Source of the DNA: Candidatus Hydrogenedentales bacterium
Lineage (GTDB): Bacteria; Hydrogenedentota; Hydrogenedentia; Hydrogenedentales; JAEUWI01
Direction: 5' to 3'
Length of the DNA stretch: 64,000 nucleotides
NCBI GenBank assembly: GCA_942492815.1
Contig: OW818658.1
Span: 5,208,125-5,272,124 of the forward strand
This document shows, one piece after another, positions 13,144 to 57,720 of this stretch. The position numbers were made by a program, and so were the translations under genes. Under the pieces are notes generated by a model. That model searched no databases, was not told the DNA's origin, and worked only from the letters and a program-made list of their open reading frames with translations. Numbering within the stretch: position 1 is the stretch's first letter; each line of letters begins with the position of its first letter.

Positions 13144-13466
13144 AGGGACAGCGTCGCCCCGTGATCGAAACGTGTAAGATGCGTTGCGCACCCGTTGTTT
13201 CCTCCAAGTCGAGGGAGGCTTGCTACAACCGGCGAGGCTGTCCTGTCGCCAAGGAGAGCAGCCCGCACGATCAACAGTAGCTCTGCACTGAGAAAGTAGC
13301 CTTCAGTAGAATACTTCGCGAAGATAGAGTCTATTACTAATGCACCGGGTCACGACGTCAGACAACAGGACAGCCCCGCCTGTTGACGTGCACTCCGCCT
13401 GGTTAAAGATCACTGGTTGACACGCAGCGTCATCGCGCATCCACATCACGGGGCGACGCTGTCCCT
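13144..13466. repeat. 21-bp perfect inverted repeat pair flanking ~281 bp; one arm encodes the last codons of the GH92 gene
   Basis: AGGGACAGCGTCGCCCCGTGA at 13144-13164 and reverse complement at 13446-13466 (reads HRDSVAP-stop on the minus strand). Confidence 0.7.
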
Positions 13467-18494: not shown

Positions 18495-18584
18495 TATTCG
18501 TCCTTGCGGTCGCTTACTAAATCCGGCGAATTATCGCTGGTTATACTTCCATTCATCAGGGGCGCCTGAAGCACTTAGGCTGCG

Positions 18585-18989
18585 AGTTCGAAGCGGAGCT
18601 TCGGGTACTGCATTTCCAAGCGGAGCTCTTGACATTATCCATAAATTCTTTTGGATAGGAGACTATTTTATTAGTCCCGAAGGGACGGCATATCGTAGCC
18701 CAGGGTGGAGCGAGGCACGAGCGAAACCCTGGGTATTGTTGCAATAAGATCACTAGCCCCAGCGGGGCGGCATAGGAGAACGAGGGAAATCGTCCCCGGT
18801 CTTCTATGCCATCCCTTCGGGATTTAAGAGTGTTTGGGCCAGTTGACCCAGGGTTCCGCTCGTACCTCGCTTCACCCTGGGCTACGATATGCCGCCACTG
18901 CGTGGCTAATTGGACAACTTTATGTAAACCGTTTCAGTGTAATAGCTGTAAATTTATGGGTAATGACAAAAGCGAAGCCTGGGAACGAG
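18585..18989. repeat. Family-1 palindromic structured repeat element (~400 bp), copy A, in the gyrB-gyrA intergenic region
   Basis: Left module TAGTCCCGAAGGGACGGCA...GTAGCCCAGGGTGGAGCGAGGCACGAGCGAAACCCTGGG and its inverted counterpart on the right arm; related copies at 24621-25001, 27928-28258 and 28354-28689. Confidence 0.75.
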
Positions 18990-19010
18990 CGGGTTTCCAG
19001 TTCTCCTCGC

Positions 19011-21443
<2,433 letters not shown>

Positions 21444-24471: not shown

Positions 24472-24600
24472 GGGGACGTACCGCCGCACTGGCACCCGAC
24501 ACAAGCGAGGTGAATGCTAGGGCCTTCTCCTCAGCCCGGTTAAGCGAGGCCCATACCAAAGCGGCGGCATGTCCCGGTAGATGCTGGAATCGTGACGCGA
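24472..24600. repeat. Family-2 structured repeat, partial solo unit
   Basis: GGGGACGTACCGCCGC ... GCGGCGGCATGTCCCGGTAGATGCTGGAATCGTGACGCG boxes shared with the tandem units at 50337-50855 and 57074-57720. Confidence 0.7.
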
Positions 24601-24620
24601 GAACTTTTCCTCTCGTTTCC

Positions 24621-25001
24621 CTCGTTCCCAAGCTCCGCTCTTGTCATTACCCACAAGTTTCGCGAGATAGGTGTCTATTGCTTTAGTCCCGAAGGGACGT
24701 CATATCGTAGCCCAGGGTGGAGCGAGGTACGAGCGAAACCCTGGGTATTATGGAAAAAATTCATTAGCCCCAGCGGGGCGGCATAGAAGAACCGGCAATC
24801 CATCCCTGGTTTTCTGTGTCATCCCTTCTGGATTCAATGTTTTTGGGGTCCGGTGACCCGGGGTTCCGCTCCTACCTCGCTGTACCCTGGGCTACGATAT
24901 GCCGCCACTACGTGGCTAATCAGATGCATTTCTGTGATCTGTTGCAGTGTCCTATGCTTAAGAACATATGGGCAATGACAAGAGCTCCGCTTGGGAACGA
25001 G
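24621..25001. repeat. Family-1 palindromic structured repeat element, copy B
   Basis: Terminal arms CTCGTTCCCAAGCTCCGCTCTTGTCATTACCC / GGGCAATGACAAGAGCTCCGCTTGGGAACGAG are inverted repeats; internal modules near-identical to copy A. Confidence 0.75.
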
Positions 25002-27612: not shown

Positions 27613-27887
27613 CGATCCCGATACCCCTTTCCATAAATTGGCTGCGGCGTAGTATCCGGGACCCCGTCGGAAAGAATCAACAAGGTGCCGCCCAACAGGG
27701 GCTCAGGCATTCCTGCCTGAGACTGGGCTCACCCAGACATGGAAAGGCCCGGCGAGTATGTAAGGCGATCTGGGATCACAACGTCGTGTTCTCGAATGCC
27801 GAGACTTGCGCACACGCCCACAGGCCTGTCGAATGGCAACGTGAGCGCTGTCTCAGACAGGAATGTCTAAGCCCCTTGGGACCGCAC

Positions 27888-27927
27888 CCCGCGCCACGAT
27901 GCGACGTTGTTCCGCGAGGGGTGGGAG
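27888..27927 (-). pseudogene. Truncated silent copy of the hsdS 3' conserved region (cassette fragment 1)
   Basis: Minus-strand reading GTTLPPLAEQRRIVAR, then diverges into a GACAGGAATGTC hairpin motif and stops. Confidence 0.65.
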
Positions 27928-28258
27928 GGTGGTACCTCGAAGGGCCGGAAGGCGTTAGCCACGAAGTGGCGGCAGTTTGTAGCCTGGGGTGGAGCGAGGC
28001 ACGAGCGCAACCCCAGGATCACCAAACAAACACATCGAATCCGCGAAGCGGATGCCAGATTGCGATAACCCCGCTCTGCCATCCGCCGCAGGCGGATTCA
28101 ACCAGTGGGGGATTCGGACCTGGGGCTGAAGCCCCAGGCTAATGACTGATGTCCACTTCGTGGACTAAGAAAACGCTCGGAGAACACCGTCCCCTGTGCC
28201 GTCTTTCCCATATTCCTGGTTCACTCGTTCCCAATTCGTAATTCATAATTCATAATTC
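27928..28258. repeat. Family-1-like structured repeat element, tandem unit 1 downstream of hsdS
   Basis: Contains TAGCCACGAAGTGGCGGCA hairpin, CCTGGGGTGGAGCGAGGCACGAGCGCAACCCCAGG hairpin and mirrored GTCCACTTCGTGGAC / CCTGGGGCTGAAGCCCCAGG hairpins. Confidence 0.7.
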
Positions 28259-28353
28259 TCAATTCGTCAGTTCACTGACGCCCGCCTCCAACTGGCCCAC
28301 CAGCCCCATCAGCTCCTCCACCCGCGCCACGATGCGACGTTGTTCCGCCAGGA
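28259..28353 (-). pseudogene. In-frame silent copy of the hsdS 3' conserved-region cassette (fragment 2)
   Basis: Minus-strand translation AVRGTTFPLLAEQRRIVARVEELMGLVGQLEAGVSELTN-stop; differs from the hsdS C-terminus by a 15-codon in-frame deletion and a few substitutions. Confidence 0.7.
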
Positions 28354-28689
28354 GCGGAAAAGTGGTACCTCGAACGGCCGGAAGGCGTTAGCCACGAAGT
28401 GGCGGCAGTTTGTAGCCTGGGGTGGAGCGAGGCACGAGCGCAACCCCAGGATCACCAAACAAACACATCGAATCCGCGAAGCGGATGGCAGGTCACGAAG
28501 ACCATGCTCTGCCATCCGCTTCGCGGATTCAAAGAGTGGGGCATTCGGACCTGGGGCTGAAGCCCCAGGCTAATGACTGATGTCCACTTCGTGGACTAAG
28601 AAAACGCTCGGAGAACACCTCCCCCTGTACCGTTTTCCCCATATTCCTGGTTCACTCACACCCAATTCGTAATTCATAGTTCATAATTC
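28354..28689. repeat. Family-1-like structured repeat element, tandem unit 2 directly abutting the hsdS stop
   Basis: Near-identical to 27928-28258; includes a 22-bp perfect inverted repeat GAATCCGCGAAGCGGATGGCAG / CTGCCATCCGCTTCGCGGATTC. Confidence 0.7.
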
Positions 28690-30264
28690 TCAATTCGTCA
28701 GCGCGCTGACGCCCGCTTCCAGCAGCGCCACCGCCGTCCGGCGCGACGTCGCGATCTGCGCCTCCAACTGGTCCACTAGCCCCATCAACTCCTCCACCCG
28801 CGCCACGATGCGGCGTTGTTCCGCGAGGGGTGGGAGAGGAAATTGAATTGAACAAATAGTTTTCATGTTCAAAAATGGCTGGACTGCCTCGGATGCAATC
28901 CCACGAAGATACTCGGCTATAGCATTCAAGTAGATGCACAAATACTGGGCCGTAACCACCTCACCTACGCGAAATCTGCACAAACCCGTTGTGGAGAGCA
29001 TCCCCTCCGGCATCGACTCCGGATAGATGGCACAGAGTCCAATGCTTCCGACTTTACCTAAGAGTACATCGTTCGGCAATACGTTGTGCCGCCTCAGCAA
29101 CGCGAACTTTTCCTCTCGAATGTATCGAAGGTCGTTGGGATTAAACCTAAACGGCTTAACATTCACCATTCGAATCACGGGGACACCCGTCTCTATGTAA
29201 TCCGTCTTTATGTTTATAGATTGACCGAAGGGCCCGTCGACAATCGCTGACTCTGAAGCATTCCCTATCTCGCCAATTCTGCACCACGTCCAGGATTCTG
29301 GAAGCGGATGGTTGTGCCCACTCAGGCTAGAATCAGCCAGTGCTCTTGGTTTACGCATCTCCCCTGATTTAATCGCGATTTGTTTAGCGCTTTCCACCCT
29401 CGCGAGGAGCTCCTCCGCCCCTTCATCTGCCGGGTCCTGGGGCACGAGCTTTCCCCGAACGGCGAGGGTGAGGATGGACTTGCGGAGGTCGGCGGGGTCG
29501 ATGGGGCAGGCCGGGTGAAAGAGGAGCTTGAGGTTTTCCGGGGTCGGGTCCTCGTTGAACCGGGACACGCTGGCGCGGGCGAGATCGGCGTGCCGCGCGT
29601 CCCGTTCCCGCTGCTGCGCCTCCAGCCGGTCACACAGGGCCATCAAGGCATCCACCTTCGCCACAATCCGCTTCTGCTCCGCGAGCGGCGGGAGGGGAAT
29701 CTCGAATCGCTCAATCATCCCTTTTGTCAGCGCCTGCCGGGTTGCTCCAACTTGTACATCATCGATCATCACTTGAATCGCCGGACTGGCCAGAAACTTC
29801 GCAAGGAACACCGGGTCCAGATCGGGTGTGGGACGTATTATAGTCACGTGCTGGTTCACCCGCGCGCCCACCATCTCCACTGGCGCCGTCGTGACTCGGC
29901 CAATCGACGCACCTGTGATATTGAGGAGAACGTCATCCGCCTGCACGATCACATTCGAGAGCTTATCTGCTTGTTCGCTCGTCAAGAACACAAGGCCGAG
30001 AGGTTCGAAACCGCGAAAGTGAACGTTCATCGAACGAATGAGCGGAATCCCTTGAGTCACGTAAGAGACCCGGCCTCCCGACGGTGTTGCACCACTGCCG
30101 ATCTTGGAAGCCAACGACTTGAGAGTCACCAAAGGCCAGGGCTCGCCAACCGGCAACAGTTTTCCCGAGAAGGCAAGGTGAAGCACCAGTTCCCGCATCT
30201 TGTCCACAGCCCTGGGCGCGTCGGCGAACAGCTCAAAGTTCTCAAAAAAAGTGTCGAGGTTCAT
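28690..30264 (-). CDS. hsdS: Type I restriction-modification specificity subunit HsdS (two target-recognition domains)
   Basis: Central and C-terminal conserved repeats LPPLAEQKRIVAKVDALM... and LPPLAEQRRIVARVEELM...; ATG at 30264 preferred (ORF track start 30297). Confidence 0.9.
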   Translation of the reverse strand: MNLDTFFENFELFADAPRAVDKMRELVLHLAFSGKLLPVGEPWPLVTLKSLASKIGSGATPSGGRVSYVTQGIPLIRSMNVHFRGFEPLGLVFLTSEQADKLSNVIVQADDVLLNITGASIGRVTTAPVEMVGARVNQHVTIIRPTPDLDPVFLAKFLASPAIQVMIDDVQVGATRQALTKGMIERFEIPLPPLAEQKRIVAKVDALMALCDRLEAQQRERDARHADLARASVSRFNEDPTPENLKLLFHPACPIDPADLRKSILTLAVRGKLVPQDPADEGAEELLARVESAKQIAIKSGEMRKPRALADSSLSGHNHPLPESWTWCRIGEIGNASESAIVDGPFGQSINIKTDYIETGVPVIRMVNVKPFRFNPNDLRYIREEKFALLRRHNVLPNDVLLGKVGSIGLCAIYPESMPEGMLSTTGLCRFRVGEVVTAQYLCIYLNAIAEYLRGIASEAVQPFLNMKTICSIQFPLPPLAEQRRIVARVEELMGLVDQLEAQIATSRRTAVALLEAGVSALTN

Positions 30265-30676
30265 TGTACCCCCAGGGACTGACGCGCGCAGGCGCACTTG
30301 TCGCGAGCGGCACAGACCAGGCGGTCAATCGGCGATGGTGAAAGCGGCAGGCACGCCCATGCGCGTGGCTGTCCCGTCGTGAGGGAGATGCACGCGATAC
30401 TCAAAGACAGGCCCGGTCCGCGACACGCCCCCTGAATACGGGCGTCGCGCGTGCGTCGAGGGCGCTCGGGCCACGACGGGACAGCCACGGACGTTGAAAT
30501 ACCTGTTGCTCGTAAACGACCCCCGTCAATCCATGGTGCCTTTGCTACCGGAATACACCGGTCCGCGTCAGTCCCTGTGAGACTGCCCTTCACACCATCG
30601 CAGGCCCCTCGCAGGCAAGTCGCATCGGCGACTGACGCGACGCCACGGGCACGGGAAAGCCAACCGGAGCGGCCAG

Positions 30677-30865
30677 ACAAAGGAGCTTGGACATTCCTGT
30701 CCGAGACAAAGCCTGCGTTACAAATTGACAGGCCCGCTGGCATGTGCGAAACCTCCGCTATCAAAAATCGGGACTTTGGCACGCCTGGCTTTACAGACAA
30801 CTTCACAGGGCCCTTCGGTGTTGGCGCAGGCGCTGTCTCGGACAGGAATGTCCAAGCTCCTTTGT
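30677..30865. mobile_element. MITE-like element, 189 bp with 32-bp perfect terminal inverted repeats
   Basis: ACAAAGGAGCTTGGACATTCCTGTCCGAGACA at 30677-30708 and exact reverse complement at 30834-30865; related solo motif at 27845-27872; no ORF inside. Confidence 0.65.
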
Positions 30866-30913
30866 ACCGCGTATCGAAGCTGCGCGTAATACTCCCCGAA
30901 AACGAGTAGCCTC

Positions 30914-32350
30914 TCATCGCGTCAGCGCCTCCATCAATTGCGCCTTCAATGCTTCCCGGGTCTCGGCGATCTGCGCCAGGAGCTTTTCGTATTCCGGCAG
31001 GAGTTCGTCCACGTTGCCGGGGCCGGTGTCGGTGCTGTGGGGGTTCTTCAGGTCGAGGTTGTAGTTGCCCGCCTGGATGGCCGCCACGGAGACGCGCCAG
31101 GCCTGCTCGTTTTCCACGCGCTTCTTCCACCACTTTTTCTCGGGCGCGAATTCCTCAATGCGGATGGGCTTGGTCTTGTTGTAGCTCTTGGCGCCGGGGG
31201 GATAGGGGTGCTCGTAGTACCAGACCTCCTTCGTGGGCTTGCCCGCGTCGAAAAAGAGCAGATTGGTGCGGATGCCGGTGTAGGGGCTGAAGACGCCGTT
31301 GGGCAGGCGCACGATCGTGTGGAGGTTGAACTCGGTCAGGAGCCGCTCCTTGATGCGGGTCTTCACGCCTTCGCCGAAGAGGGTGCCGTCGGGCAACACG
31401 AGCCCCGCGCGGCCGCCAGGCTTGAGCAGCTTCATCAGCAGCACGAGGAAGAGATCGGCTGTTTCTCGCGTGCGGAATTCCGTCGGGAAGTTGGCCTCGA
31501 TCCCGTCTTCCTCCATGCCGCCGAAGGGCGGGTTGGTGACGATGACGTCCACGCGCTCGGTGGCCTTCCAGTCGCGCAGTGGCCGGGCGAGGGTGTTGTC
31601 GTGGCGCACGTTGGCGGGCACGTCGATGCCGTGGAGCATGAGGTTGGTCATGCAGAGGACATGGGGCAGGTGCTTCTTCTCGATGCCGTGGAAGCAGTCC
31701 TGGATCGCGCGCTCGTCGGCCTCGGTTTTGGCCTGCTTGCGCAGGTGCTCGATGGCGCAGGTGAGGAAGCCGCCGGTGCCGCAGGCGGGATCGAGGAGGG
31801 TCTCTCCGAGGCGCGGGTTGACCTGCTCCACGATGAACTGGGTGACGGCCCGGGGCGTGTAGAACTCGCCCGCGTTGCCCGCGGACTGGAGGTCTTTCAG
31901 AATGCGCTCGTAGATGTCGCCGAACATATGGCGGTCGTCGGAGGCGTTGAAATCGATGCCATTGATCTTGTTGATCACCTGGCGCATGAGGGTGCCGTTT
32001 TTCATGTAGTTGTTGGCGTCTTCAAAGCTCATGCGGATGAGCCCGGCAATCTTGTCCTGGCCGCCGGTGAGGGCCTTGAGCTTGGGCAGGAGCGTGTTGT
32101 TCACAAAATCGAGGAGGGCCTCGCCCGTGATGCCTTCCTCGTCCTTCGCCCAGTGGCTCCAGCGCAGGTGCGGGGGCAGGGGCGACTTGTAGTGGTCGCG
32201 GATGAGTTCGAGTTCCTGCTCGCGGTCATCGAATATTTTCAGGAAGAACATCCAACCGAGCTGCTCCAGGCGCTGGGCGTCGCCATAGGTGCCGGCGTCC
32301 TTGCGCATGATGTCCTGGATGGATTTTACGATATTGGAAACGTTGGACAT
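30914..32350 (-). CDS. hsdM: Type I restriction-modification DNA methyltransferase subunit HsdM
   Basis: N6-adenine methyltransferase motifs (TNPPFG, LDPACGTGGFL); 478 aa. Confidence 0.95.
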   Translation of the reverse strand: MSNVSNIVKSIQDIMRKDAGTYGDAQRLEQLGWMFFLKIFDDREQELELIRDHYKSPLPPHLRWSHWAKDEEGITGEALLDFVNNTLLPKLKALTGGQDKIAGLIRMSFEDANNYMKNGTLMRQVINKINGIDFNASDDRHMFGDIYERILKDLQSAGNAGEFYTPRAVTQFIVEQVNPRLGETLLDPACGTGGFLTCAIEHLRKQAKTEADERAIQDCFHGIEKKHLPHVLCMTNLMLHGIDVPANVRHDNTLARPLRDWKATERVDVIVTNPPFGGMEEDGIEANFPTEFRTRETADLFLVLLMKLLKPGGRAGLVLPDGTLFGEGVKTRIKERLLTEFNLHTIVRLPNGVFSPYTGIRTNLLFFDAGKPTKEVWYYEHPYPPGAKSYNKTKPIRIEEFAPEKKWWKKRVENEQAWRVSVAAIQAGNYNLDLKNPHSTDTGPGNVDELLPEYEKLLAQIAETREALKAQLMEALTR

Positions 32351-32394
32351 GGATTGGGCTTGCTTCTACGTGCGCGATTGCACGGGTGAGTTTA

Positions 32395-32467
32395 CAGGGA
32401 CGGCAGGGACATCAGGGACAACAGGAAGAGAGTATTCTGCCGTCCCTGATGTCGCTGCTGTCCCTGT
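32395..32467. promoter_or_regulatory. Imperfect inverted repeat with GGGAC heptad repeats between hsdR stop and hsdM start
   Basis: CAGGGACGGCAGGGACATCAGGGACAACAGG ... CTGCCGTCCCTGATGTCGCTGCTGTCCCTG in the 143-nt hsdR-hsdM spacer. Confidence 0.45.
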
Positions 32468-32493
32468 GAATGAGGGCGGATAATCCGCACATT

Positions 32494-34860
32494 TTACGCC
32501 ACCCTCCGGTACAGCTCGGCTTCGAGGGCCTGGATCGCCTCCAGGTACTGTTCCTTGCCGCCGAAGAGTTTCACGATCTCCGTGACGGTGCCGAATTGGG
32601 TCAGCGGAGCCACTTTCAATATTTCCAGGGACTCCACGCTCTGGATGCCGCCGTCGGCGAACTTGTCCAGCAGCGCGTCGAGCACGGCGCGCACCTCCGC
32701 GCCGTATTTCGCGAAGACGTGGCGCTTGCGCACGTTCTCCGCGCGCTCGCGCCGGGTGAGGGGCGGCTCGTCGAAGGCCACGTGGCAAATGAGGTCGAAG
32801 GCGTCGTAGTCGCGGCCCACCTGCTCGGCGAGTTCGTCCAGGAAGACGCCCTTGCCCGCGAGCTCTTCGAGGATGGCCTGCTTCCGCTCGGCATCGCTCC
32901 AAACGGTGAGAAATTCCGTCAGCGTGGCGAAGGACTTTTGCACGGTGCGGCGGCTGTAGTCGCGGAGGGATTCGGTGATGAGCTTGCCGTCGGCGTCGAG
33001 GTATTGCACGCGCTCGGTGACGATCTTTACTTCCACGTTGTCCACGTAGTACTTCTTCGGCCGTCCGCTGTCGCCCTCACCGTCGAGGGGCCAGGGCTCA
33101 CCGTCAATGTACACCTCGCCCTCTTCCTGAGCGTTCGTCGAACTTTCGTCCGGCGGCACCACGGAATCGTCGGGCCCGGGTACATAGATCTGCACCGGAT
33201 CGCCGTCGAAATCCGGATCGGCGAAGAGGGCCGTGGCGCGCTTGAAATCCATGATAGTGAAATAGAGCTTGCCGTAGTCCTCGCGGATGCGGGTGCCGCG
33301 ACCGATGATCTGCTTGAACTCGGTCATGGAGGCGATGCGCTTGTCGAGGACAATGAGGTGGCAGGTCTGGGCGTCAACGCCGGTGGACATGAGCTGGGAG
33401 GTGGTGGCGATGACCGGATAGTCCCGGCTGGGATCGATGAAATTGTCGAGCTGGGCCTTGCCCTCGGGGCTGTCGCCGGTGATGCGCATGACGTATTTGT
33501 CGTTGGCGGCGGCGAGGTCGGGGTTGGCGTTGACCAGGGCCTGGCGCATCCGCTCGGCGTGATCGATGTCGTCGCAGAAGACTATCGTCTTGGCGAAGCG
33601 GTTGGTGGCGTAGAGGAACTCGGTGATTTTCGCGGCCACGAGGGCGGTGCGCTTTTCGAGGACGAGGTTGCGATCAAAGTCGAGGATATTGTACTCGCGA
33701 TCTTCGATTTCGTGGCCGTATTTGTCGGTCTGGCCGCGCTCGGGCCGCCAGCCGTCGAGGTCTTTGTCGATGCCGACGCGGACCACCTTGTAGGGCGCGA
33801 GGAAGCCGTCGGCGATGCCTTGCTTGAGGGAGTAGGTGTAAATGGGTTCGCCGAAGTACTCGATGTTCGACACGTCGCGCGTTTCTTTGGGCGTTGCGGT
33901 GAGGCCGATCTGGGTGGCGGAGCTGAAGTACTCCAGGATCTGCCGCCAGTTGGCGTCGTCGGCCGCGCTGCCGCGATGGCACTCGTCGATCACGATGAGA
34001 TCGAAGAAGTCGGGCGAAAACTGTTTGTAGATGTTCTGATCTTCCTCGGTGCCGCTGACGGCCTGGTAGAGGGCGAGGTAGATCTCGAAGGCCTTGTCCG
34101 CCGTGCGGTTCGTGATCTTGGTCATGGCCTTGCCGAAGGGCTTGAAGTCGTTGCTCTTGGTCTGGTCGGCGAGGATGTTGCGATCGACGAGAAAGAGGAT
34201 GCGTCTGCGCGCCCCGGCCTTCCACAGCCGCCAGATGATCTGGAAGGCGGTGTAGGTCTTGCCAGTGCCGGTGGCCATAACGAGGAGGATGCGCTTCTCG
34301 CCGCGCGCGATGGCGTCCACGGTGCGGTTGATGGCGACGAGCTGGTAGTAGCGCGGGGCGCGGTCGGAGCCGTCGTCGTAGTAATCCTGGGTGGTCACGG
34401 CTTCCTGCGCGTCGGTGTAGCCTTTGGCCTGGCGATAGCGGGCCCAGAGTTCTTCGGGCGTGGGGAATTGATCGAGGGGGATCTCGCGCTCGACTGTGCC
34501 TCCGGTGCCAGTGCGGTCGTGCTCCAGAAAGGTGTCGCCGTTGGAGCTGTAAGCAAAGGGCACGTCGAGGATCTCGGCATACTCGAGCGCCTGCTGCATG
34601 CCCGCGCCCACAGCGTGGTTATTGTCCTTGGCCTCGACGACGGCAATGGGCATGTTGGGCTTGTAGAAAAGGAGGTAATCGGCTTTTTTCGCCTCGCCCC
34701 GCGACACGGACTTGCCCCGGACGATCACGCGCCCCTTGGTGAAGTGATACTCTTCGAGCATCTGGGTCATCACGTCCCACTTCGATCCGCCGGGTCCGAG
34801 GATCGCCGGCGTGATGAACTTGGTGCGGATGTCGGTCTCTGTCAGTGCCTTTTTGTCCAC
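32494..34860 (-). CDS. hsdR: Type I restriction enzyme endonuclease/helicase subunit HsdR
   Basis: 788 aa; N-terminal nuclease region, SF2 helicase motifs (ATGTGKT Walker A, DECHR); canonical HsdR N-terminus. Confidence 0.95.
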
Positions 34861-34953
34861 GTGTGCCCCTGTGTGCCTGTTTTGTATGAATCCCGCCCGG
34901 GCTCGGTGGGGCTATTGTACATGGCACCGGGCCGAAGTGGGAAGCGGGGCGGG

Positions 34954-35967
34954 CTATTTCGCCTTTTCCTCGATCCGCTTTGCTTCCCGCTCCAGTTCAG
35001 CCATTTCGTCGCTGGCGGCCTCTTCATCCAGTCTTCGCCGGTTGAACTTTTCGTACTCCCCTTCCGCGCGGGATTTTGCGAGGTCTGCGCTGATGGTGCC
35101 CGCGTTCTCCAGAACTTCCCGCCCGTTGAACTGGAGGAAGGCATTGAGCTTCCCCTCCCAATCGGCCATGTGCATGGGCTGCTTTCGCTCCGCCTGGTCT
35201 TCGGCGTAGTCGAGGTACATCGTTACGATTCGGTTGAGTCCACGCACTTCCTCCTCGGTGAGGTAGTTTTTCGCGATGGCCACGTCGCCCTTCCGAACTT
35301 TTGCGCCTTTCCAGGTGGTCAGGCCCATGTTGGGCTGGGTGGCGTCCACGCGTTCCACGATCAGCTCGGCAGCCGTGTGGCCGTGGGTCGCCCAGTGAAG
35401 TTTGTTCTGCACTGCCTTGAAGAAATGTCGGGCCTGTTCGGAGTTGGGTTCATAGTCCACAGCGAGGGCGTAGATATCCTGAATCTTCCGGTAGAAGCGT
35501 TTCTCCGAAGCGCGGATATCACGGATCCGCTCCAGGAGTTCGTCATAGTAGTCCGCGCCGAGATTGCGGCCCTCCTTGAGCCGCTCGTCGTCCATGGCGA
35601 AGCCCTTGACGAGGTATTCCCGGAGCCGCTCCGTGGCCCAGCGACGAAACTGGGTGCCCCGGTGGGAGCGAACGCGATATCCGACGGCGATGATCACGTC
35701 GAGGTTGTAGTGTTTGATTGCCCGCTGGACTTCCCGCGCGCCCTCGGATTGAACTGTCAAGTATTCCTTGACAGTTGCCCCTTCGTCGAGTTCGCCTTCC
35801 TCGTAAATATTTCGAATATGGAGACTTATGTTCTGCTTGCTGCTATGAAACAAGTCTACCAATTGCGCCTGGCTGAGCCAGACGGTCTCGTCTTCCAAGC
35901 GCACGTCGATGCGCGTCTTCCCGCCCTCGGGCTGGTATATGAGGATTTCCGATTGTGGTTCCGGCAT
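34954..35967 (-). CDS. rhuM: RhuM family protein (uncharacterised, frequently linked to Type I R-M loci)
   Basis: N-terminal region ...IYQPEGGKTRIDVRLEDETVWLSQAQLVDLFHSSKQNISLHIRNIYEEGEL typical of RhuM; directly upstream of hsdR on the same strand. Confidence 0.8.
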   Translation of the reverse strand: MPEPQSEILIYQPEGGKTRIDVRLEDETVWLSQAQLVDLFHSSKQNISLHIRNIYEEGELDEGATVKEYLTVQSEGAREVQRAIKHYNLDVIIAVGYRVRSHRGTQFRRWATERLREYLVKGFAMDDERLKEGRNLGADYYDELLERIRDIRASEKRFYRKIQDIYALAVDYEPNSEQARHFFKAVQNKLHWATHGHTAAELIVERVDATQPNMGLTTWKGAKVRKGDVAIAKNYLTEEEVRGLNRIVTMYLDYAEDQAERKQPMHMADWEGKLNAFLQFNGREVLENAGTISADLAKSRAEGEYEKFNRRRLDEEAASDEMAELEREAKRIEEKAK

Positions 35968-36237
35968 GCGGCCCTCCCGTTGTCCCGTGCCCCCGGTGCT
36001 TGACGTCGCTGGTGGCGGCGCTCACTGGAATCCATACTGCCGCACGGGATATTGAAAGCTTAGCGCAGGCTGCGGGGATGGCGCAACGCAAACGGGAGCG
36101 CGGGTTTTCCTACCCGCGTATCGGGCAACTTAGTTGCGCGATCAAGTGAGGCGGGGCTACGGGCGGAACCGAATGCGCCGTTGGCGCAACCACGTGTAGG
36201 AAGACCCGTGCTCCCGGTTTCCGTCCTGAACTCCCCC

Positions 36238-36558
36238 CTACTCCCCCATTTCTTCCCCGTCGGGCAACAGCACGATATACATATCCGACACGAGCTCTTT
36301 CCCCGCTATCTTATTGATCTTTTTCATGATCTGCCACTTGCGGTAGTTGAGCTTGTGCATCCACACGGCGCTGTCGGCCTCGATGCGGAGCTGGAGTTCT
36401 TTGATGCCCTGGGGGCGGGTGTGTTTGGCCACGGTTTCGCCGACGATCTCGGGCCAGTGTTCCCAGATCTCGGCGTGCTCCAGGTGCTTGCCCAGATCGG
36501 TGGTCTTCTTCATCTTGGCGAGGATGTCGCCAACGCCTTCCAACTTACTCCGCTTCAA
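36238..36558 (-). CDS. DUF721 domain protein (DciA-like)
   Basis: 106 aa; overlaps the recF 3' end by 14 nt; DUF721 genes typically sit in the recF/gyrB neighbourhood. Confidence 0.65.
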   Translation of the reverse strand: MKRSKLEGVGDILAKMKKTTDLGKHLEHAEIWEHWPEIVGETVAKHTRPQGIKELQLRIEADSAVWMHKLNYRKWQIMKKINKIAGKELVSDMYIVLLPDGEEMGE

Positions 36559-37618
36559 GCGTGCCTCGCGTCATCTGGTAGCGGCGGTAGGGACGCCCGC
36601 CGATTTTTTCCGCCAATTCCCGTTCGGTGGTGGTAACCAGACATTGTACCTTATCCTGGAGGGACTCGAACAGGGCTTGGGCCCGGTGCGCATCCAGCTC
36701 GGCGAGGACTTCGTCGAGCATGAGAATGGGGTATTCGCCGGTCTGGGCCTGGACCAGTTCGATCTCGGCGAGCTTGAGGGCGAGTGCGGCGGATTTCTGC
36801 TGGCCCTGGGATCCGTAGATACGGGCGGGCCGCCCTTCGATGAGGATCTCGATGTCATCGCGGTGGGGCCCGCGGAGGGTCTGCTTGCGGCGGATGTCGT
36901 GATCGCGGGTATCGCGGAGGATGGCCTCGAAGTCTTCGGCGCGCTCGAGATCGGGGGTGTAGGTCAGGGAGAGGGTCTCGGCGGTGGCGATGCGCTGGTA
37001 GGCCCCGGCGGCCTGCACGGAGAGATCGGCGATAAAGGCCGCGCGCTCCTCCATGAGGATCTGCCCGGCGGGCGCGAGCTGGGCATCCCATATTTCGAGT
37101 AACGCCGGATCGGGCCGGTGCTGCTTGAGGAGGCTGTTACGCTGCTTGAGGGCCTGGCGATAGCGCTGGAGCGCGCCAAGGTAGCGGGGGTTAATCTGGG
37201 AGATTTCCATGTCGAGGAATCGCCGCCGCATGGAGCCGCTGCCCTTGACGAGGGCCACGTCTTCGGGCGAGAAGAAGACCGTGTTGATACGGCCCAGGAT
37301 ATCGCTGACGCGGGTCTGGGGAACGCCGTTGATCTTGAAGCGCTTGGCCTTCTGCCAGTAGTGGGCTTCGAGCTGCACCTCGCGATCGCTGCGCTGGGCC
37401 GTGGCGGTGATGGAGAAGCCCTCCTCGCCGTGGCGCGCAAGCTCGCGCTCGTTCAGTGTGCGGTGGCTGCGCGCGGTGCAGACGTAGAGCAGGGCCTCCA
37501 GGAGCGAGGTCTTGCCCTGAGCGTTGTCGCCGTGGATGATGTTGAGGCCGGGTTCGGGCGCGAAGCTGAGTTCTTCAAGGCAGCGGAAGCGGCGGCAGGT
37601 GAGTTGGGTCAACCACAT
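36545..37618 (-). CDS. recF: DNA replication and repair protein RecF
   Basis: 357 aa; Walker A GDNAQGKTSLLEAL; ABC-type signature and Walker B (ILMLDEVLAELD). Confidence 0.95.
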   Translation of the reverse strand: MWLTQLTCRRFRCLEELSFAPEPGLNIIHGDNAQGKTSLLEALLYVCTARSHRTLNERELARHGEEGFSITATAQRSDREVQLEAHYWQKAKRFKINGVPQTRVSDILGRINTVFFSPEDVALVKGSGSMRRRFLDMEISQINPRYLGALQRYRQALKQRNSLLKQHRPDPALLEIWDAQLAPAGQILMEERAAFIADLSVQAAGAYQRIATAETLSLTYTPDLERAEDFEAILRDTRDHDIRRKQTLRGPHRDDIEILIEGRPARIYGSQGQQKSAALALKLAEIELVQAQTGEYPILMLDEVLAELDAHRAQALFESLQDKVQCLVTTTERELAEKIGGRPYRRYQMTRGTLEAE

Positions 37619-48743: not shown

Positions 48744-49190
48744 TTGGCTAAAGGAAGACACCTTCTCATCGATTGTGTGAATGTGCCCCGGGAAGTCTGT
48801 GGCGACGACAAGCTGGTATTGAAGGCGATGGCATCGGCCGCGGAACGCGCCGGTGCAACCGTCATCTCCCAGGTTCGCTACCATTTTGGGCACAATTCCG
48901 CACCTGGCTTCACCGCCATGGTCCTGTTGGACGAGAGCCATTGTTCCGCGCATGCGTATTCGGACGAAGGCCTGCTCGCCTTGGATATCTTTACCTGCGG
49001 GGACACCGACCCCCGGGATGTATTGGCGTACATGCAGGAGATGCTCGATCTGGGCGATATTACCGTGCAGCATTGCGAACGGTTCCATACGCCCGGCGAG
49101 CGCTTTAGAGCGCCTGAGATTGCTGTCTCCCTGAAGTCCTTCCGTACCGAGGCATTCGAACTCGCGACGAGCGGGAACGGGCATGGATAA
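48744..49190 (+). CDS. speH: S-adenosylmethionine decarboxylase proenzyme, small bacterial type (SpeH)
   Basis: Self-processing site context LLDESHCSAHAY; TTG start with AGGAGG about 10 nt upstream. Confidence 0.85.
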   Translation: MAKGRHLLIDCVNVPREVCGDDKLVLKAMASAAERAGATVISQVRYHFGHNSAPGFTAMVLLDESHCSAHAYSDEGLLALDIFTCGDTDPRDVLAYMQEMLDLGDITVQHCERFHTPGERFRAPEIAVSLKSFRTEAFELATSGNGHG

Positions 49191-50277
49191 CCGCTGTTTC
49201 CACAGCGGTTCCGCAGACGGACTGAAACCTCTCTTAAGTCTTGACCTGGACCAGATCCACACCTTTAAGGGTCTGGTCCAGGCGATGTCTCACACGGCCT
49301 TCGGCGGACGAAGGCTGGGCGAGGCACTGGAAACGCTGACGGAAATGGTGCAGACGCCGGGATGCTTCAAAGTCATGAGCATCTCTGGCGCCATGACCGT
49401 GGCAAAACAGGGCAAGATCGTTTCAGACCTGATCGACCGCGGCGTCATTGACGCAGTCGTGGCCACCGGTGCGCTGGTGACCCACGGCCTGACGGAATCC
49501 TTCGGCAACACCCACTACGCGGTGCCCCATGACGCGACGGACGAGGAGCTTTTCGACCAGGGCTACAATCGGATTTACGATACCCTGGAGATGGAAGCGA
49601 ACCTCAACGATCTGGCGGAAATCATCGCCGGCATCATGGACAAGCAGGACGCGAACACCGCGTGGTGTTCCAGCGCCATCTGTCGCGCCATCGGCGAAGA
49701 GCTGGACAAGCGCGACGAAGGACCCGGAATTCTCCGGAGCGCCTACCGCCGTGGCGTGCCCGTGTATATCCCCGCCTTTACCGATAGCGAGATGGGACTT
49801 GACCTCTCCACTTGGGCCATGGCGCGAAGCCTGAAGCCCGGCGCGGCCCCCGAGGCGTGCCTCGACACCGTCCCGAATTTTAATCCCTTCCTCGATTTGC
49901 AGGATTATGCCAAGCGCGCCATCGGCGCCTCGACGCTGGGCATTTTCACCATCGGCGGCGGCGTGCCGCGCAACTGGGCTCAGCAAGTGGGCCCCTACGC
50001 CGACATCACCGCGCGGCGCCTTGGCATCACCCTGCCCGAGATCAAATTCAAGTATGCGGTGCGCATCTGCCCCGAGCCCGACCACTGGGGCGGCCTTTCC
50101 GGCTGCACCTACAGCGAAGGTGTGAGCTGGGGCAAGTTCGTGCCCCGCTCCGAAGGCGGCAAACACGCCGAAGTCCACGCGGACGCCACGACGGTCTTCC
50201 CCCTGCTGGCCAAGGCCCTCTTCGAGACGCTGGAAACGGGCGATGCCCCGAAGGTCTGTCCGAAGTCGGGCAAGTAA
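49183..50277 (+). CDS. Deoxyhypusine synthase-like protein (DHS family; possible homospermidine-synthase-type enzyme)
   Basis: 364 aa DHS-family architecture; 8-nt overlap with speH. Confidence 0.8.
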   Translation: MDNRCFHSGSADGLKPLLSLDLDQIHTFKGLVQAMSHTAFGGRRLGEALETLTEMVQTPGCFKVMSISGAMTVAKQGKIVSDLIDRGVIDAVVATGALVTHGLTESFGNTHYAVPHDATDEELFDQGYNRIYDTLEMEANLNDLAEIIAGIMDKQDANTAWCSSAICRAIGEELDKRDEGPGILRSAYRRGVPVYIPAFTDSEMGLDLSTWAMARSLKPGAAPEACLDTVPNFNPFLDLQDYAKRAIGASTLGIFTIGGGVPRNWAQQVGPYADITARRLGITLPEIKFKYAVRICPEPDHWGGLSGCTYSEGVSWGKFVPRSEGGKHAEVHADATTVFPLLAKALFETLETGDAPKVCPKSGK

Positions 50278-50291
50278 GCACGTAAATCTGA

Positions 50292-50331
50292 ATCGCCGCG
50301 CTCCACGATGCTGGAGCGCGGCGATTTTTTG
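50292..50331 (+). terminator. Rho-independent terminator after the speH / DHS-like operon
   Basis: ATCGCCGCGCTCCA-cgatgc-TGGAGCGCGGCGAT followed by TTTTTTGT. Confidence 0.8.
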
Positions 50332-50336
50332 TCTGA

Positions 50337-50855
50337 GGGGACGTACCGCCGCAAATAAACCCCGTAAAGGGCACACCGCCCTACGCCCTATGAGTCCATT
50401 CAACCGAGGGACGTTCACGCCAACGCGGCGGCATGTCCCTGGGGATGCTGGAATCACGACGCGGAATAAATCCAGGGCGCTCCATTACATCCGCCGGGAC
50501 GGGCACGCGCGCTGCCAGGAGCATCGCAAATAACAGTCATAGGAATGCGTGGAGTGACCCGCGCCCACACAAGTCGCGGGCGCGAGTCCGTCCCAGGGGA
50601 CGTACCGCCGACAATATTCCCCGTGAAGGGCACACCACCCTGCGCGCTCTGGATCCATTCAACCGAGGAACGTTCACACCAAGGCGGCATGTCCCTGGGG
50701 ATACTGGAATCGTGACGCGGAATAATCCAAGACCCTCCATTACGTCCACCGGGACGGGCACGCGCGTTGCCGGGAGCGTCGCACATAACCGTCATAGGAA
50801 TGTGCGGAGTGACCCGCGCCCGCGCCCGCAGCCGTCGCGGGCGCGAGTCCGTCCC
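50337..50855. repeat. Family-2 structured repeat, two tandem units (~258 + 261 bp)
   Basis: Units about 85% identical; each has a 5' GGGGACGTACCGCC box, a central GGCGGCATGTCCCTGGGGAT(G/A)CTGGAATC(A/G)TGACGCGG box and a 3' GGGACGGGCACGCGCG...CGCGGGCGCGAGTCCGTCCC box. Confidence 0.8.
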
Positions 50856-50856
50856 T

Positions 50857-51699
50857 TTACGCGCCCCACTTCTCGCGGATCATCTTCAGGCCGTTCGTGG
50901 CGAGGTACTCTTCGCTCGGAGCCATGACGCGCCAGATGCAGGTGGCACCGGCAAGATCGGGGATCCAGGAGCCAAAGGCTTCGATTACCATCCAGCCGTC
51001 GTAGCCGATTTCCTTGAGTGCCGCGAAGCAGGTGTCGTAGTCGATGTGGTCGTCGCCGGGTGTCGCACGGTCGTTCGCGGAGATATGCACGTGGTTGATG
51101 CAGTTGCCACCGGCGCGGATCGCCTCGGCGAAATTCTTCTCTTCGATGTTGGCGTGGAAGGTGTCGAACATCTCCCCCACCGCTTCGATGCCAACGGCGC
51201 GCACAAGATTCGCGGAATCCGCCTGGGTGTTGAGGAAATACGTCTCGAAGCGGTTCAAGGGCTCGATGGCGAGTTTGATGCCTTTCTCCGTGGCGTGGGC
51301 ACCCACTTCACGGAAGCCTTGGATCGCGCGATCCATTTCATCAGGCACGGGGCCGCGTCCGATGAGCCGACCCACCGGGCTGTACAGGGGGCCGCAGAGG
51401 GCCTCGGCGCCCAGCACCACACAAGCGTCTATGCAGGCTTTGAGATGGACGACAGCCGCCTTGCGCTCGCCTTCGTCTTCACCGATCAGGTTCGTGCCGG
51501 CGGGCAACACCGTCACCGCCGTCCGGCCCAGGCCCAGCGCGTCGCACTTGGCGGCCAGCTTAGCCCAGGGGGATCCATCGGCCGAAAACATGGGAAACTC
51601 CACGCCGTCGAAGCCCCAGCCTTTGATCTGTTCCAGCAGGGGCAGGTGGCTCTCGTCCGCGCCACCGGTCCACAGCAACAAGTTCATCCCGACTTTCAT
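50857..51699 (-). CDS. Sugar phosphate isomerase/epimerase (xylose-isomerase-like TIM barrel)
   Basis: 280 aa; TIM-barrel family pattern (...AIEPLNRFETYFLNT..., ...HVHISANDR...). Confidence 0.85.
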   Translation of the reverse strand: MKVGMNLLLWTGGADESHLPLLEQIKGWGFDGVEFPMFSADGSPWAKLAAKCDALGLGRTAVTVLPAGTNLIGEDEGERKAAVVHLKACIDACVVLGAEALCGPLYSPVGRLIGRGPVPDEMDRAIQGFREVGAHATEKGIKLAIEPLNRFETYFLNTQADSANLVRAVGIEAVGEMFDTFHANIEEKNFAEAIRAGGNCINHVHISANDRATPGDDHIDYDTCFAALKEIGYDGWMVIEAFGSWIPDLAGATCIWRVMAPSEEYLATNGLKMIREKWGA

Positions 51700-51831
51700 G
51701 GGTTATTCTCCTTCTTGAGGGTGCGTCCATCTTTGGAGCGCCCGGGTCTCTTGGGTATGCCCGGCGAGCGGAATCGCCGCCCGCCGAAGGGCCCCGTCAC
51801 TATACGGATGGCCGGGGCTGAAGGCAAACTT

Positions 51832-51924
51832 GAAGGATGAAGGTTAAAGGATGAAGGTTAAAGGATGAAGTATGAAGTGAGCGAGGAACCGCACCCGTTC
51901 TTCAGCCTTCATCCTTCATCCTTC
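51832..51924. promoter_or_regulatory. Direct repeats AAGGATGAAGGTTA (x2.5) facing inverted CTTCATCC repeats in a divergent promoter region
   Basis: GAAGGATGAAGGTTAAAGGATGAAGGTTAAAGGATGAAG ... CTTCATCCTTCATCCTTC between the isomerase start and the PSCyt-family gene start. Confidence 0.45.
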
Positions 51925-55625: not shown

Positions 55626-57065
55626 ATGAGTCACCATAAACCAACCGCCGACGACTTCGTCTTAAACCGGCGCGATTTCCTCAAGCGCACCGGCATGGGC
55701 TTTGGCGCGATGGGCCTGGCCAGCACCCTGCTCGGCGGCAGCACGAACGCCTTCGGCGCGCTGAATCCCACCGCGCCGCAGCGGCCCCACTTCGAGGGCA
55801 AGGCGAAGCGCGTGGTCCATATCTTCCACAACGGCGGCCTCTCCCAGGTGGACTCCTTCGACCCGAAGCCCTCGCTGGCGAAGTACGCGGGCCAGAACCT
55901 GCCCAACTTGAATCTCCGCACGGAGCGGCCCACCGGTGCGGCTTTCCCTTCACCCTTCACCTTCAAGGAATATGGTGAGAGCCGCATTCCCGTGAGCAGT
56001 CTCTTCCCCCACCTGGGCGAGTGCGTGGACGACATGTGCATCGTGCGCTCCATGTGCGCGGACGTGCCGAATCACGAGCCGTCGCTGTTGTTGATGAATT
56101 GCGGCGACGCGCGCCAGATTAGGCCGAGCGTAGGCTCGTGGGTCACCTATGGCCTGGGCACGGAAAACCAGAATCTGCCCGGTTTCATCTCCATGTGCCC
56201 CAGCGGCTACCCGATCCAGGAGTCACAGAACTGGCAGTCGGGTTTCCTCCCCGGCGTGTACCAGGGCACCTACATAGATACGCAGCACACAGAGATGGAA
56301 AAGCTCATCGCCCACATCGAGAACAACTACCAGTCGAGCAAATCGCAGCGCGAACAACTCGACCTGCTCAGCGAATTAAACCACCGCCACCTCGCCGCAC
56401 GCGACCAGGACAGCGAACTGGAGACGCGCCTTCAGAGCTTCGAACTGGCCTACCGTATGCAGCTCGACGCAACGGACGCCTTCGACATTTCCCGCGAACC
56501 GGAAAGCATCCGCGAGATGTATGGGCCGGGCGTGCATGGGCGTCAGTGTCTCATCACGCGGCGGCTGCTGGAGCGGGGCGTGCGCTTCATCCAGCTCTGG
56601 CACGGCGCGGGCCAGCCCTGGGACAGCCACGACGACATCGAGAAACTCCACGGCAACCTCGCGAAGGAATGCGATCAGGGCATCGCGGCGCTTTTGAAGG
56701 ATTTGAAACAGCGCGGCATGCTGGACGAGACGCTGGTGCTTTGCACGGGCGAATTCGGCCGCACGCCCACCGTCGAACTGCCCACGCCCGGCGCAAACGC
56801 GGGCAAAGTGAACGGCCGCGATCACAACCACTACGGCTTCACAGCCTGGATGGCGGGCGGCGGCGTGAAGGGCGGCCACATCCACGGCGCGACGGACGAG
56901 TTCGGCTTCCAGGCGGTGGAAAACCGGGTCCACGTCCACGACCTCCACGCGACGATGCTCCACTTACTGGGCTTTGACCACGAAAAACTGACCTACCGCT
57001 ACGCGGGCCGCGATTTCCGACTGACGGACGTACACGGGCACGTCGTGCGGGACATTATTGCGTAG
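55626..57065 (+). CDS. DUF1501 domain protein (sulfatase-like fold) with twin-arginine signal
   Basis: 479 aa; Tat motif NRRDFLKRTGMGFGAMGLA; canonical partner of the DUF1549/DUF1553 protein. Confidence 0.9.
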   Translation: MSHHKPTADDFVLNRRDFLKRTGMGFGAMGLASTLLGGSTNAFGALNPTAPQRPHFEGKAKRVVHIFHNGGLSQVDSFDPKPSLAKYAGQNLPNLNLRTERPTGAAFPSPFTFKEYGESRIPVSSLFPHLGECVDDMCIVRSMCADVPNHEPSLLLMNCGDARQIRPSVGSWVTYGLGTENQNLPGFISMCPSGYPIQESQNWQSGFLPGVYQGTYIDTQHTEMEKLIAHIENNYQSSKSQREQLDLLSELNHRHLAARDQDSELETRLQSFELAYRMQLDATDAFDISREPESIREMYGPGVHGRQCLITRRLLERGVRFIQLWHGAGQPWDSHDDIEKLHGNLAKECDQGIAALLKDLKQRGMLDETLVLCTGEFGRTPTVELPTPGANAGKVNGRDHNHYGFTAWMAGGGVKGGHIHGATDEFGFQAVENRVHVHDLHATMLHLLGFDHEKLTYRYAGRDFRLTDVHGHVVRDIIA

Positions 57066-57073
57066 GGGTACCA

Positions 57074-57720
57074 GGGGACGTACCGCCGCAAAGGCACTTG
57101 GGCAGACGCGGTAAACACGAATCGTCATTGCCACTCGATAGGGACAAAGCCCGCTCTGGTGCGGCGGCATGTCCCGGTGGATGTTGCAACGTGACGTGAA
57201 CACTTCGCGAAGCTTTCGGTAATGGACCCGGTGGATGAAGCCCGACTGGATCCACAAAAACGGTGATGTGGAGCGTTCGCGTGTACTCCACACTTCCACT
57301 GGGACAGGCACGCGCGTTGTCGTAAACTTTGCTCGTATTCGTCATCCTGAATAATCAATATGAACCACGCCCGCAGTAGTCGTGGGCGCGAGTCCGTCCC
57401 CGGGGACGTACCGCCGCAAAGGCACTTGGGCAGACGCGGTAAACACGAATCGCCATGCACACTCGATTTTGACAAAGCACGCTCTGGTGCGGCGGCATGT
57501 CCCTGTGGATGTAGAATCATGACGTGAACGCAACATGTAGTCAACTTGCGGAGAACGCTCGACCGGATTCGCAAAATCGGCGATCTGGAGCGTTCACGCG
57601 CCTTTCGCACATCCACTGGGACGGGCACGCGCGTTGTAAGGTACTTTGCCCACATTCGTCATCCTGAATACTTCAATGTGCACCCCGCTCGCAGTAGTCG
57701 TGGGCGCGAGTCCGTCCCCC
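57074..57720. repeat. Family-2 structured repeat, two tandem units (~328 + 319 bp)
   Basis: Both units start GGGGACGTACCGCCGCAAAGGCACTTGGGCAGACGCGGTAAACACGAATCG and end CGCAGTAGTCGTGGGCGCGAGTCCGTCCCC; shared boxes with 50337-50855. Confidence 0.8.

Follow-up and report, generated by a model that had tools for sequence, protein, structure and literature searches.

REP/BIME elements are found in enterobacteria and pseudomonads, in which palindromic units occur outside genes in high copy number. Successive units point in opposite directions, and conserved linker motifs connect them into mosaics and tandem arrays. They are over-represented downstream of gene 3' ends and in convergent intergenic regions, frequently within a few nucleotides of a stop codon. 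Each REP is a stem-loop of 20–40 nt with a conserved GTAG before it, and the stems carry conserved imperfections. REPIN-RAYT systems include a single-copy gene for the RAYT, a Y1 HUH transposase, which is flanked by the repeats and resides in the same genome. Besides, Correia/NEMIS, ERIC/IRU, RUP and BOX are bacterial MITE-like repeats with terminal inverted repeats. According to Bertels and Rainey (2011, PMC3116915), the REPIN is a pair of invariant 16-mers placed in inverted orientation around a spacer of fixed length and lower conservation; it forms a hairpin, and its excision starts at the first conserved base.

The repeat studied here lies at positions 50337–50855 of the window, i.e., the whole 64-kb stretch of DNA that was analysed. 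It stands between two convergent genes that a sequence-only reading of this DNA had assigned to a DHS-like protein and an isomerase, and both assignments were confirmed (PF01916 with an E-value of 8e-74 and PF01261 with an E-value of 1e-41, respectively). The locus is organised as follows, the bit scores being those of the covariance model R1.

49183–50277, + strand: DHS-like gene (deoxyhypusine-synthase family, PF01916)
50290–50333, + strand: terminator-like hairpin of canonical form (16 pairs) with its T-run, belonging to the DHS-like gene and shortly preceding copy B
50337–50594, + strand: element copy B, 258 nt, an inverted dimer H1-linker-H3 with the ends GGGGACGTACCGCCGC ... GCGCGAGTCCGTCCC
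50337–50439, + strand: hairpin H1 of copy B, with the arms GGGACGTACCGCCGC / GCGGCGGCATGTCCC and an unconserved spacer of ~71 nt between them
50440–50495, + strand: linker or weak middle hairpin H2 of copy B, from two unit tails (GGGGATG...CATCCGC)
50496–50595, - strand: hairpin H3 of copy B, an inverted unit, with the + strand arms GGGACGGGCACGCGC / GCGCGAGTCCGTCCC
50596–50855, + strand: element copy C, 260 nt, tandem duplicate of copy B (84% identical)
50596–50695 (H1) and 50751–50856 (H3, - strand): hairpin modules of copy C, 44.8 and 49.2 bits
50857–51699, - strand: xylose-isomerase-like TIM barrel gene (PF01261), with 1 nt between its stop codon and copy C

Tandem Repeats Finder delimited a tandem repeat at 50336–50821, with a period of 255, 1.9 copies, 86% matches and a score of 744. 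When the head-to-tail units (50337–50594 and 50596–50855) were aligned globally, 222 of the 264 columns were identical (84%), in agreement with the two units of ~260 bp and ~85% identity reported initially. The start GGGGACGTACCGCC and the end CCGTCCC attributed to the units are present in both of them, and the second unit, which had been described as ending at the isomerase stop codon, indeed ends at 50855, one base before the TAA located on the - strand at 50857–50859. The 14-mer of the 5' box occurs five times in the window without mismatch, each time on the + strand; when up to two mismatches were tolerated, six matches were obtained for 0.84 expected, a number reached by 0 of 100 shuffles. 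The inner box GGCGGCATGTCCC likewise occurs five times exactly in the window, each time 86–91 nt downstream of a 5' box. The pairing proposed between the two boxes was recovered over 15 positions, of which 13 are Watson-Crick pairs and the other two a G·T and an A·C. The associated claim that these imperfections are G-U-compatible on the plus-strand transcript did not hold, one of them being G·U and the other A·C, which is no wobble pair. As G·U and A·C swap on the minus strand, the pairing of the boxes favours neither strand. On the other side of the isomerase gene, a microsatellite is found just upstream of the gene start (51831–51877), which can be read as (AAGGATGAAGGTTA)x2.7 or as a 7-mer x6.7.

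The basic unit of the family is ~130 nt long and consists of a purine, a 15-nt arm (GGGACGKACC...), a spacer of ~71 nt, the complementary arm and a tail of ~27 nt that starts with GTGGATG. An inverted pair of such units, the tails of which pair, makes a dyad-symmetric element of 256 nt. The facing tails give the weak middle hairpin of the full element, in which 71% of the cells are paired and a few double changes are seen. In an alignment, 30 full copies (~256 nt) match solely at the four 15-nt arms and at a short linker, conserved as GTGGATG/CATCCAC. Throughout the family, the arm pair of H1 is GGGACGTACCGCCGC / GCGGCGGCATGTCCC and that of H3 is GGGAC(A/G)GGC(C/A)CGCGC / GCGCG(G/A)GTCCGTCCC, with a median spacer of 71 nt in both hairpins (range 65–75). 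Once reverse-complemented, H3 aligns with H1 over its full length, and R1 puts the two hairpins on opposite strands in every element, with scores of 45–77 bits in the right orientation vs 14–33 bits in the wrong one. For copy B, H1 scored 75.5 bits in the correct orientation vs 24 bits in the opposite one, and H3 scored 53.9 bits on the - strand. The ends of the elements are sharp and the flanks unrelated, the left end being a purine followed by GGGACGTACCGCCGC and the right end GCGCG(A/G)GTCCGTCCC. Single units, inverted dimers and head-to-tail arrays were all met, including H1/H1 inverted dimers at three loci and at least nine arrays; arrays of this head-to-tail type, with junctions of 1–7 nt, are common. 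A basic unit made of hairpin and tail accounts for the ~28 copies that contain H1 plus tail only.

Five clear and two divergent copies of the family are present in the window. Besides copies B and C, these are:

57074–57400, + strand: copy D, 327 nt, with a longer linker, beginning 8 nt past the stop codon of a DUF1501 gene
57402–57718, + strand: copy E, 317 nt, tandem duplicate of copy D (262 of 328 columns identical)
24472–24605, + strand: single unit, hairpin and tail without H3, 48 nt past a response-regulator gene, 67.9 bits under R1
13144–13466, + strand: divergent subfamily copy of the same architecture, read by eye, with weak R1 matches of 11–15 bits
30274–30576, + strand: divergent subfamily copy, 34.6 and 18.7 bits under R1, with the outer arms AGGGACTGACGCG / CGCGTCAGTCCCT

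The copy at 13144–13466 fills the gap between convergent genes, and its outer arms, AGGGACAGCGTCGCCCCG / CGGGGCGACGCTGTCCCT, are inverted repeats of each other without mismatch over 18 bp. The GH92 gene (13446–15800, - strand) has its last ~6 codons and its stop codon within an arm of this copy. The other divergent copy, at 30274–30576, sits between hsdS and hsdM, within a restriction-modification island, and carries mismatches at positions 6 and 8 of the main-family stem, with other bases (T·T and A·G).

Outside the window, the family was found at no fewer than 63 further loci, all of those listed belonging to three Candidatus Hydrogenedentota/Hydrogenedentales MAGs; the scan searched for a pattern of two H1 boxes in one genome per species, which makes the copy number and the taxonomic range lower bounds. 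In total, 80 copies were resolved in the listed loci and the window, and ~125 hairpin modules in 465 kb of the same DNA. The family is dispersed and high-copy, with sharply bounded ends. The isomerase homologues also bear Hydrogenedentes names. No match to the family was obtained in 388 kb of unrelated metagenome loci, gathered via the DHS protein and holding homologues at most 64% identical, nor in viral contigs or plasmids. Likewise, no Rfam family matched the repeat, either at the gathering score or at E<=10, the ORFs overlapping the repeats had no Pfam match, and nothing on repeats in Hydrogenedentes was found in the literature. The family is new, the kind of element is already known, and the phylum is one in which no repeats are known to have been described.

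Between orthologous loci, the spacers drift neutrally and the arms are constrained. In four orthologous pairs, the H3 arms had 2 changes over 120 positions and their spacers 100 over 292 (Fisher p 3e-15); the H3 arms lie outside the search pattern, whereas the H1 arms are the search pattern, their invariance being partly ascertainment. The divergence of the spacers between orthologues is about that of the third codon positions of the neighbouring gene. This is illustrated by the isomerase gene of two close relatives, the third positions of which are 86% (L145) and 73% (L051) identical to those of the window, for spacer identities of 85% and 63–80%, respectively. Between dispersed copies, the spacers are nearly unrelated (mean identity of 0.567 vs 0.542 for shuffles), and a spacer identity above 0.76 is limited to tandem neighbours, orthologues and one segmental duplicate.

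The content of the locus itself varies among relatives. In L145, whose isomerase gene is 94% identical at the nucleotide level, the spacer holds one element, the H3 of which is without its inner arm; arm conservation is thus not absolute. In L051 (isomerase 90% identical in nucleotides), the DHS-isomerase spacer contains one element without H1, and this hairpin is absent exactly arm to arm, between GGGG microrepeats. Three remoter relatives (83–86% amino-acid identity, with another neighbour gene) have no element at the isomerase gene, and two of these three have a canonical hairpin and T-run straight after the isomerase stop codon. At another locus, L006 carries a full element and its orthologue L022 carries H1 alone, the tail and H3 being missing. 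As to the window, no dispersed pair reaches the 84% identity of copies B and C, which indicates that they arose by local duplication of one dimer, in line with the tandem duplication put forward earlier.

The stem of the hairpins was then considered separately from their interior. Three stem positions differ between the arms of H1 and H3, and all three differences are compensatory (T-A/G-C, G-C/C-G, C-G/G-C). Besides, 78 of 78 modules retain the two stem mismatches, a G·T at position 6 and an A·C at position 8. Compensatory arm differences together with retained mismatches show that the stem exists as a genuine structure of the single strand and that its mismatches are fixed. The sequence-only reading had gone further and had proposed a multi-stem, RNA-like architecture and a candidate ncRNA, to be examined by folding and covariation across copies. 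This proposal was not borne out, as the interiors are unstructured, covariation within the elements does not rise above shuffles and Rfam gives no match. Indeed, RNAalifold run on 30 copies retained just the two outer stems of 13–15 bp, with a covariation term of +0.18, and the covariation score within the elements was 0.043 vs 0.038 in shuffled data, 52 of 500 shuffles reaching the observed value. The folding z-scores of the hairpin interiors against shuffled sequence were -0.46 and -0.35. The whole unit folds with z-scores of -2.4 to -3.0 vs shuffles, alike on both strands, and the minimum-free-energy structures obtained from single-sequence folds differ between copies. Real support is limited to the pairing of the 15-bp hairpin stem. 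Two candidate features were rejected: a C-rich, G-poor loop of the Rho-binding (rut-like) type, H1 having a mild C>G skew and H3 none, and a spacer that extends the hairpin as in REPINs, the spacer folding no better than shuffled sequence.

The genomic context of the copies was established from the calls of a heuristic, GC3-based gene caller, according to which all copies lie between predicted genes or overlap their last codons at most. The intergenic regions with copies are convergent in 30 cases, tandem in 25 and divergent in 7, which bears out the anticipated convergent bias. Close to half of the copies (35 of 76) begin no more than 12 nt from the stop codon of a gene with the same orientation, and in 9 of those 35 copies the TAG stop codon is finished by the element's own AG. 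At the other end, the distance to a convergent stop codon is at most 13 nt for 21 of 49 full elements. Nine elements are tightly enclosed by a stop codon on each side. An extra (TA)GGGAC was observed within 20 nt upstream of the RGGGAC start of the element in 8 of 80 copies vs 2% in the background (e.g., L044, L047, L062, L009 and window positions 57063–57073); it could have been left by an earlier copy or reflect a preferred target.

Signals of transcription or mobility were also searched for around the copies. The terminator scan returned a single site at the locus, the one belonging to the DHS gene at 50290–50333, and no terminator-like site was found on the isomerase strand before the repeat. 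No U-tract follows the hairpins, the 3' arms preceding NGTGGATG and not T-runs. Over the gene ends compared, a terminator-like site occurs at 1 of 57 ends abutted by an element vs 42 of 236 ends without one. No promoter-like site was found at the repeat, no target-site duplication in the flanks of 49 full copies, and no recurrent protein family beside the copies. The search for an HUH...Y motif and tblastn with the E. coli RayT gave no match in the 570 kb sampled, which represent a fraction of each genome. Among the 40 window genes scanned, Pfam gave no transposase and no phage or transposase genes were seen.

Taken together, these results make it probable that the locus consists of two neighbouring members of a Hydrogenedentota family of interspersed, non-coding palindromic repeats, of the REP/BIME/REPIN kind. 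This reading follows from the inverted invariant arms, the free spacer of fixed length, the mosaic dimers and arrays, the siting after stop codons, for the most part in convergent intergenic regions, and the long vertical persistence accompanied by gain or loss of modules. The REP/MITE-like alternative that had initially been mentioned beside the ncRNA is also the one supported by a dispersed high-copy family, its sharp ends and its convergent bias. Like REP/BIME, the Hydrogenedentota family is made of many extragenic imperfect palindromes, with alternating units, conserved linkers and arrays, a gene 3'-end siting and conserved stem imperfections. Unlike REP units, its 15-nt arms, GGGACGTACCGCCGC and GCGGCGGCATGTCCC, are not self-complementary and are without GTAG, so that the hairpin needs both arms; this hairpin spans ~101 nt, including a 71-nt unpaired spacer. 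The family has no sequence similarity to known REPs, and its host belongs to the Hydrogenedentota. It resembles REPINs in its inverted invariant ~16-mers (15-nt arms here) and fixed-length spacer, in the predicted hairpin of single-stranded DNA or RNA, in the doublet clusters and in the long vertical persistence. Moreover, the excision of REPINs at the first conserved base recalls the arm-to-arm absence of H1 in L051. However, the spacer of REPINs is paired with compensatory changes, whereas that of the family is unstructured and the arms alone covary, and the family is without recent dispersed copies.

Under this REP/BIME/REPIN-like reading, the arms would be the maintained part of the element, acting as a hairpin in single-stranded nucleic acid, and the fixed G·T/A·C mismatch pair may constitute a recognition feature. 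Spread could have proceeded via a hairpin-recognising enzyme provided in trans, the role that the RAYT has for REPINs, and modules could now and then have been lost from arm to arm. The dispersed copies show no recent shared ancestry (spacer identity of 0.57 vs 0.54 for shuffles), so that any present mobility is putative, and the indels could all be deletions. As the copies stand right behind stop codons, each flanking transcript would first encounter a hairpin of one and the same type, stable and GC-rich. The likeliest effect on the host would be exerted at the mRNA 3' end, through a transcription barrier or protection against 3' exonucleases. Since no U-tract is present behind the hairpins, a role as terminator would be non-canonical.

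In a different account, the element is a host-maintained, cis-acting 3'-end module without present mobility. The copies would then provide converging genes with U-tract-independent bidirectional transcription barriers, RNA stabilisers or protein-binding sites, and a dedicated protein would identify them by their G·U/A·C mismatches. Orthologous loci, at which the arms are under strong purifying selection and the spacers drift, are consistent with this account, as is the dyad symmetry, by which a hairpin of one type, with G·U at position 6 and A·C at position 8, faces the transcripts coming from either side. So are the numerous copies that abut a stop codon, the nine wedged between stops, which leave no space for another terminator, and the scarcity of terminator-like sites at the abutted gene ends. 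In addition, the isomerase strand of the window is without the hairpin and T-run that element-free relatives have after the isomerase stop codon. Nevertheless, the hairpins lack a U-tract, the DHS gene retains its own canonical terminator upstream of the element, the C-rich rut-like loop failed for H3, and 7 copies are located in divergent and 25 in tandem intergenic regions. Moreover, close relatives vary at this very locus, with two elements, one with a damaged H3 or one without H1, and such variable content argues against a strict requirement for the element. A 3'-end module of this type was considered rather unlikely. Equally doubtful at present is a broader proposal, that of a host-maintained lineage-specific system, in which the hairpins would be more than selfish DNA and a dedicated protein would read the 15-bp stem with its fixed G·U/A·C pair behind stop codons, or, equivalently, of a REPIN-RAYT-like "commensal replicator". 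If the host-maintained version were true, the ends of converging transcripts would be formed or protected bidirectionally and independently of a U-tract in Hydrogenedentota; if the commensal replicator were true, it would use a hairpin geometry undescribed so far, far outside the Proteobacteria in which such systems have been studied.

Less probable still is a classical MITE, i.e., a non-autonomous derivative of a cut-and-paste IS with TIRs of ~15 bp, which would be moved by a DDE transposase. The outer ends of the element are indeed inverted repeats (RGGGACG...CGTCCCY), with 12 matches over 15 positions for the main family and 13–18 perfect bp in the window copies at 30274 and 13144, the length of 256–330 bp is typical of MITEs, and sequence subfamilies exist. 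The family thus shares with Correia/NEMIS, ERIC/IRU, RUP and BOX a size of 100–330 bp, terminal inverted repeats and intergenic siting, and with BOX a modular composition as well. Unlike these MITE-like repeats, it is without target-site duplication (none at ~50 full copies) and no parent IS was seen, neither an IS with such ends nor a transposase being present in the sampled DNA. Its interiors are saturated with change, whereas the four internal and terminal arms are fixed, the inner arms being conserved as much as the outer ones. Besides, near-identical dispersed copies are missing, and the arm-to-arm loss or gain of single hairpins is unpredicted by a transposon with two TIRs. Finally, a free-standing structured ncRNA gene family, encoded on the + strand and tandemly duplicated here, is very improbable, since its stable stems, the three compensatory differences between module types in the hairpin stem and the z-scores of the whole unit, though equal on both strands, are set against the missing Rfam match, the lack of conserved structure or covariation past the two outer stems with unstructured, neutral interiors, wobble pairs without strand asymmetry, the absence of a promoter-like site, and a dyad symmetry, variable modules, high copy number and stop-codon abutment that fit such genes poorly.

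If the REP/BIME/REPIN-like reading is correct, an uncultured phylum would thereby have its first described family of interspersed palindromic repeats, each genome carrying roughly a hundred copies or more. The combination of frozen arms and neutral spacers would offer a clean natural experiment on what maintains REP-like elements, and the repeat is a candidate non-canonical 3'-end signal. It also carries a warning for annotation, as such repeats should not be called ncRNA genes or ORFs. Moreover, the repeat may be used as a marker for genome rearrangement and MAG mis-assembly, one copy being found at the junction of an 8.6-kb restriction-modification island. This island of ~8.6 kb (window positions 27629–36232) is absent from the syntenic MAG locus L015, in which a single hairpin unit of the repeat family (5453–5584 of L015) stands exactly at the island junction. 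It contains the following genes.

28690–30297, - strand: hsdS
30914–32350, - strand: hsdM
32494–34860, - strand: hsdR
34954–35967, - strand: RhuM

Genes for gyrA, gyrB, a recF-like SMC_N protein and DciA are located in the window at 15972–21428 and 36238–37618, which points to a housekeeping, probably origin-proximal region of the chromosome. A second tandem repeat (27888–28721; period 433, 1.9 copies, 91% matches) lies at the island edge and ends just within the 3' end of hsdS. Each of its copies contains a match to the Rfam family Acido-Lenti-1 (RF01687), at 28119–28166 and 28550–28597 on the + strand. The third and best match to Acido-Lenti-1 (49.3 bits) was obtained on the - strand at 24685–24745, 80 nt downstream of the single unit at 24472–24605. 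Locus L019, from another MAG, matches positions 24681–24926 in both orientations with 71–73% identity, which makes this a further repeat family that these genomes have in common.
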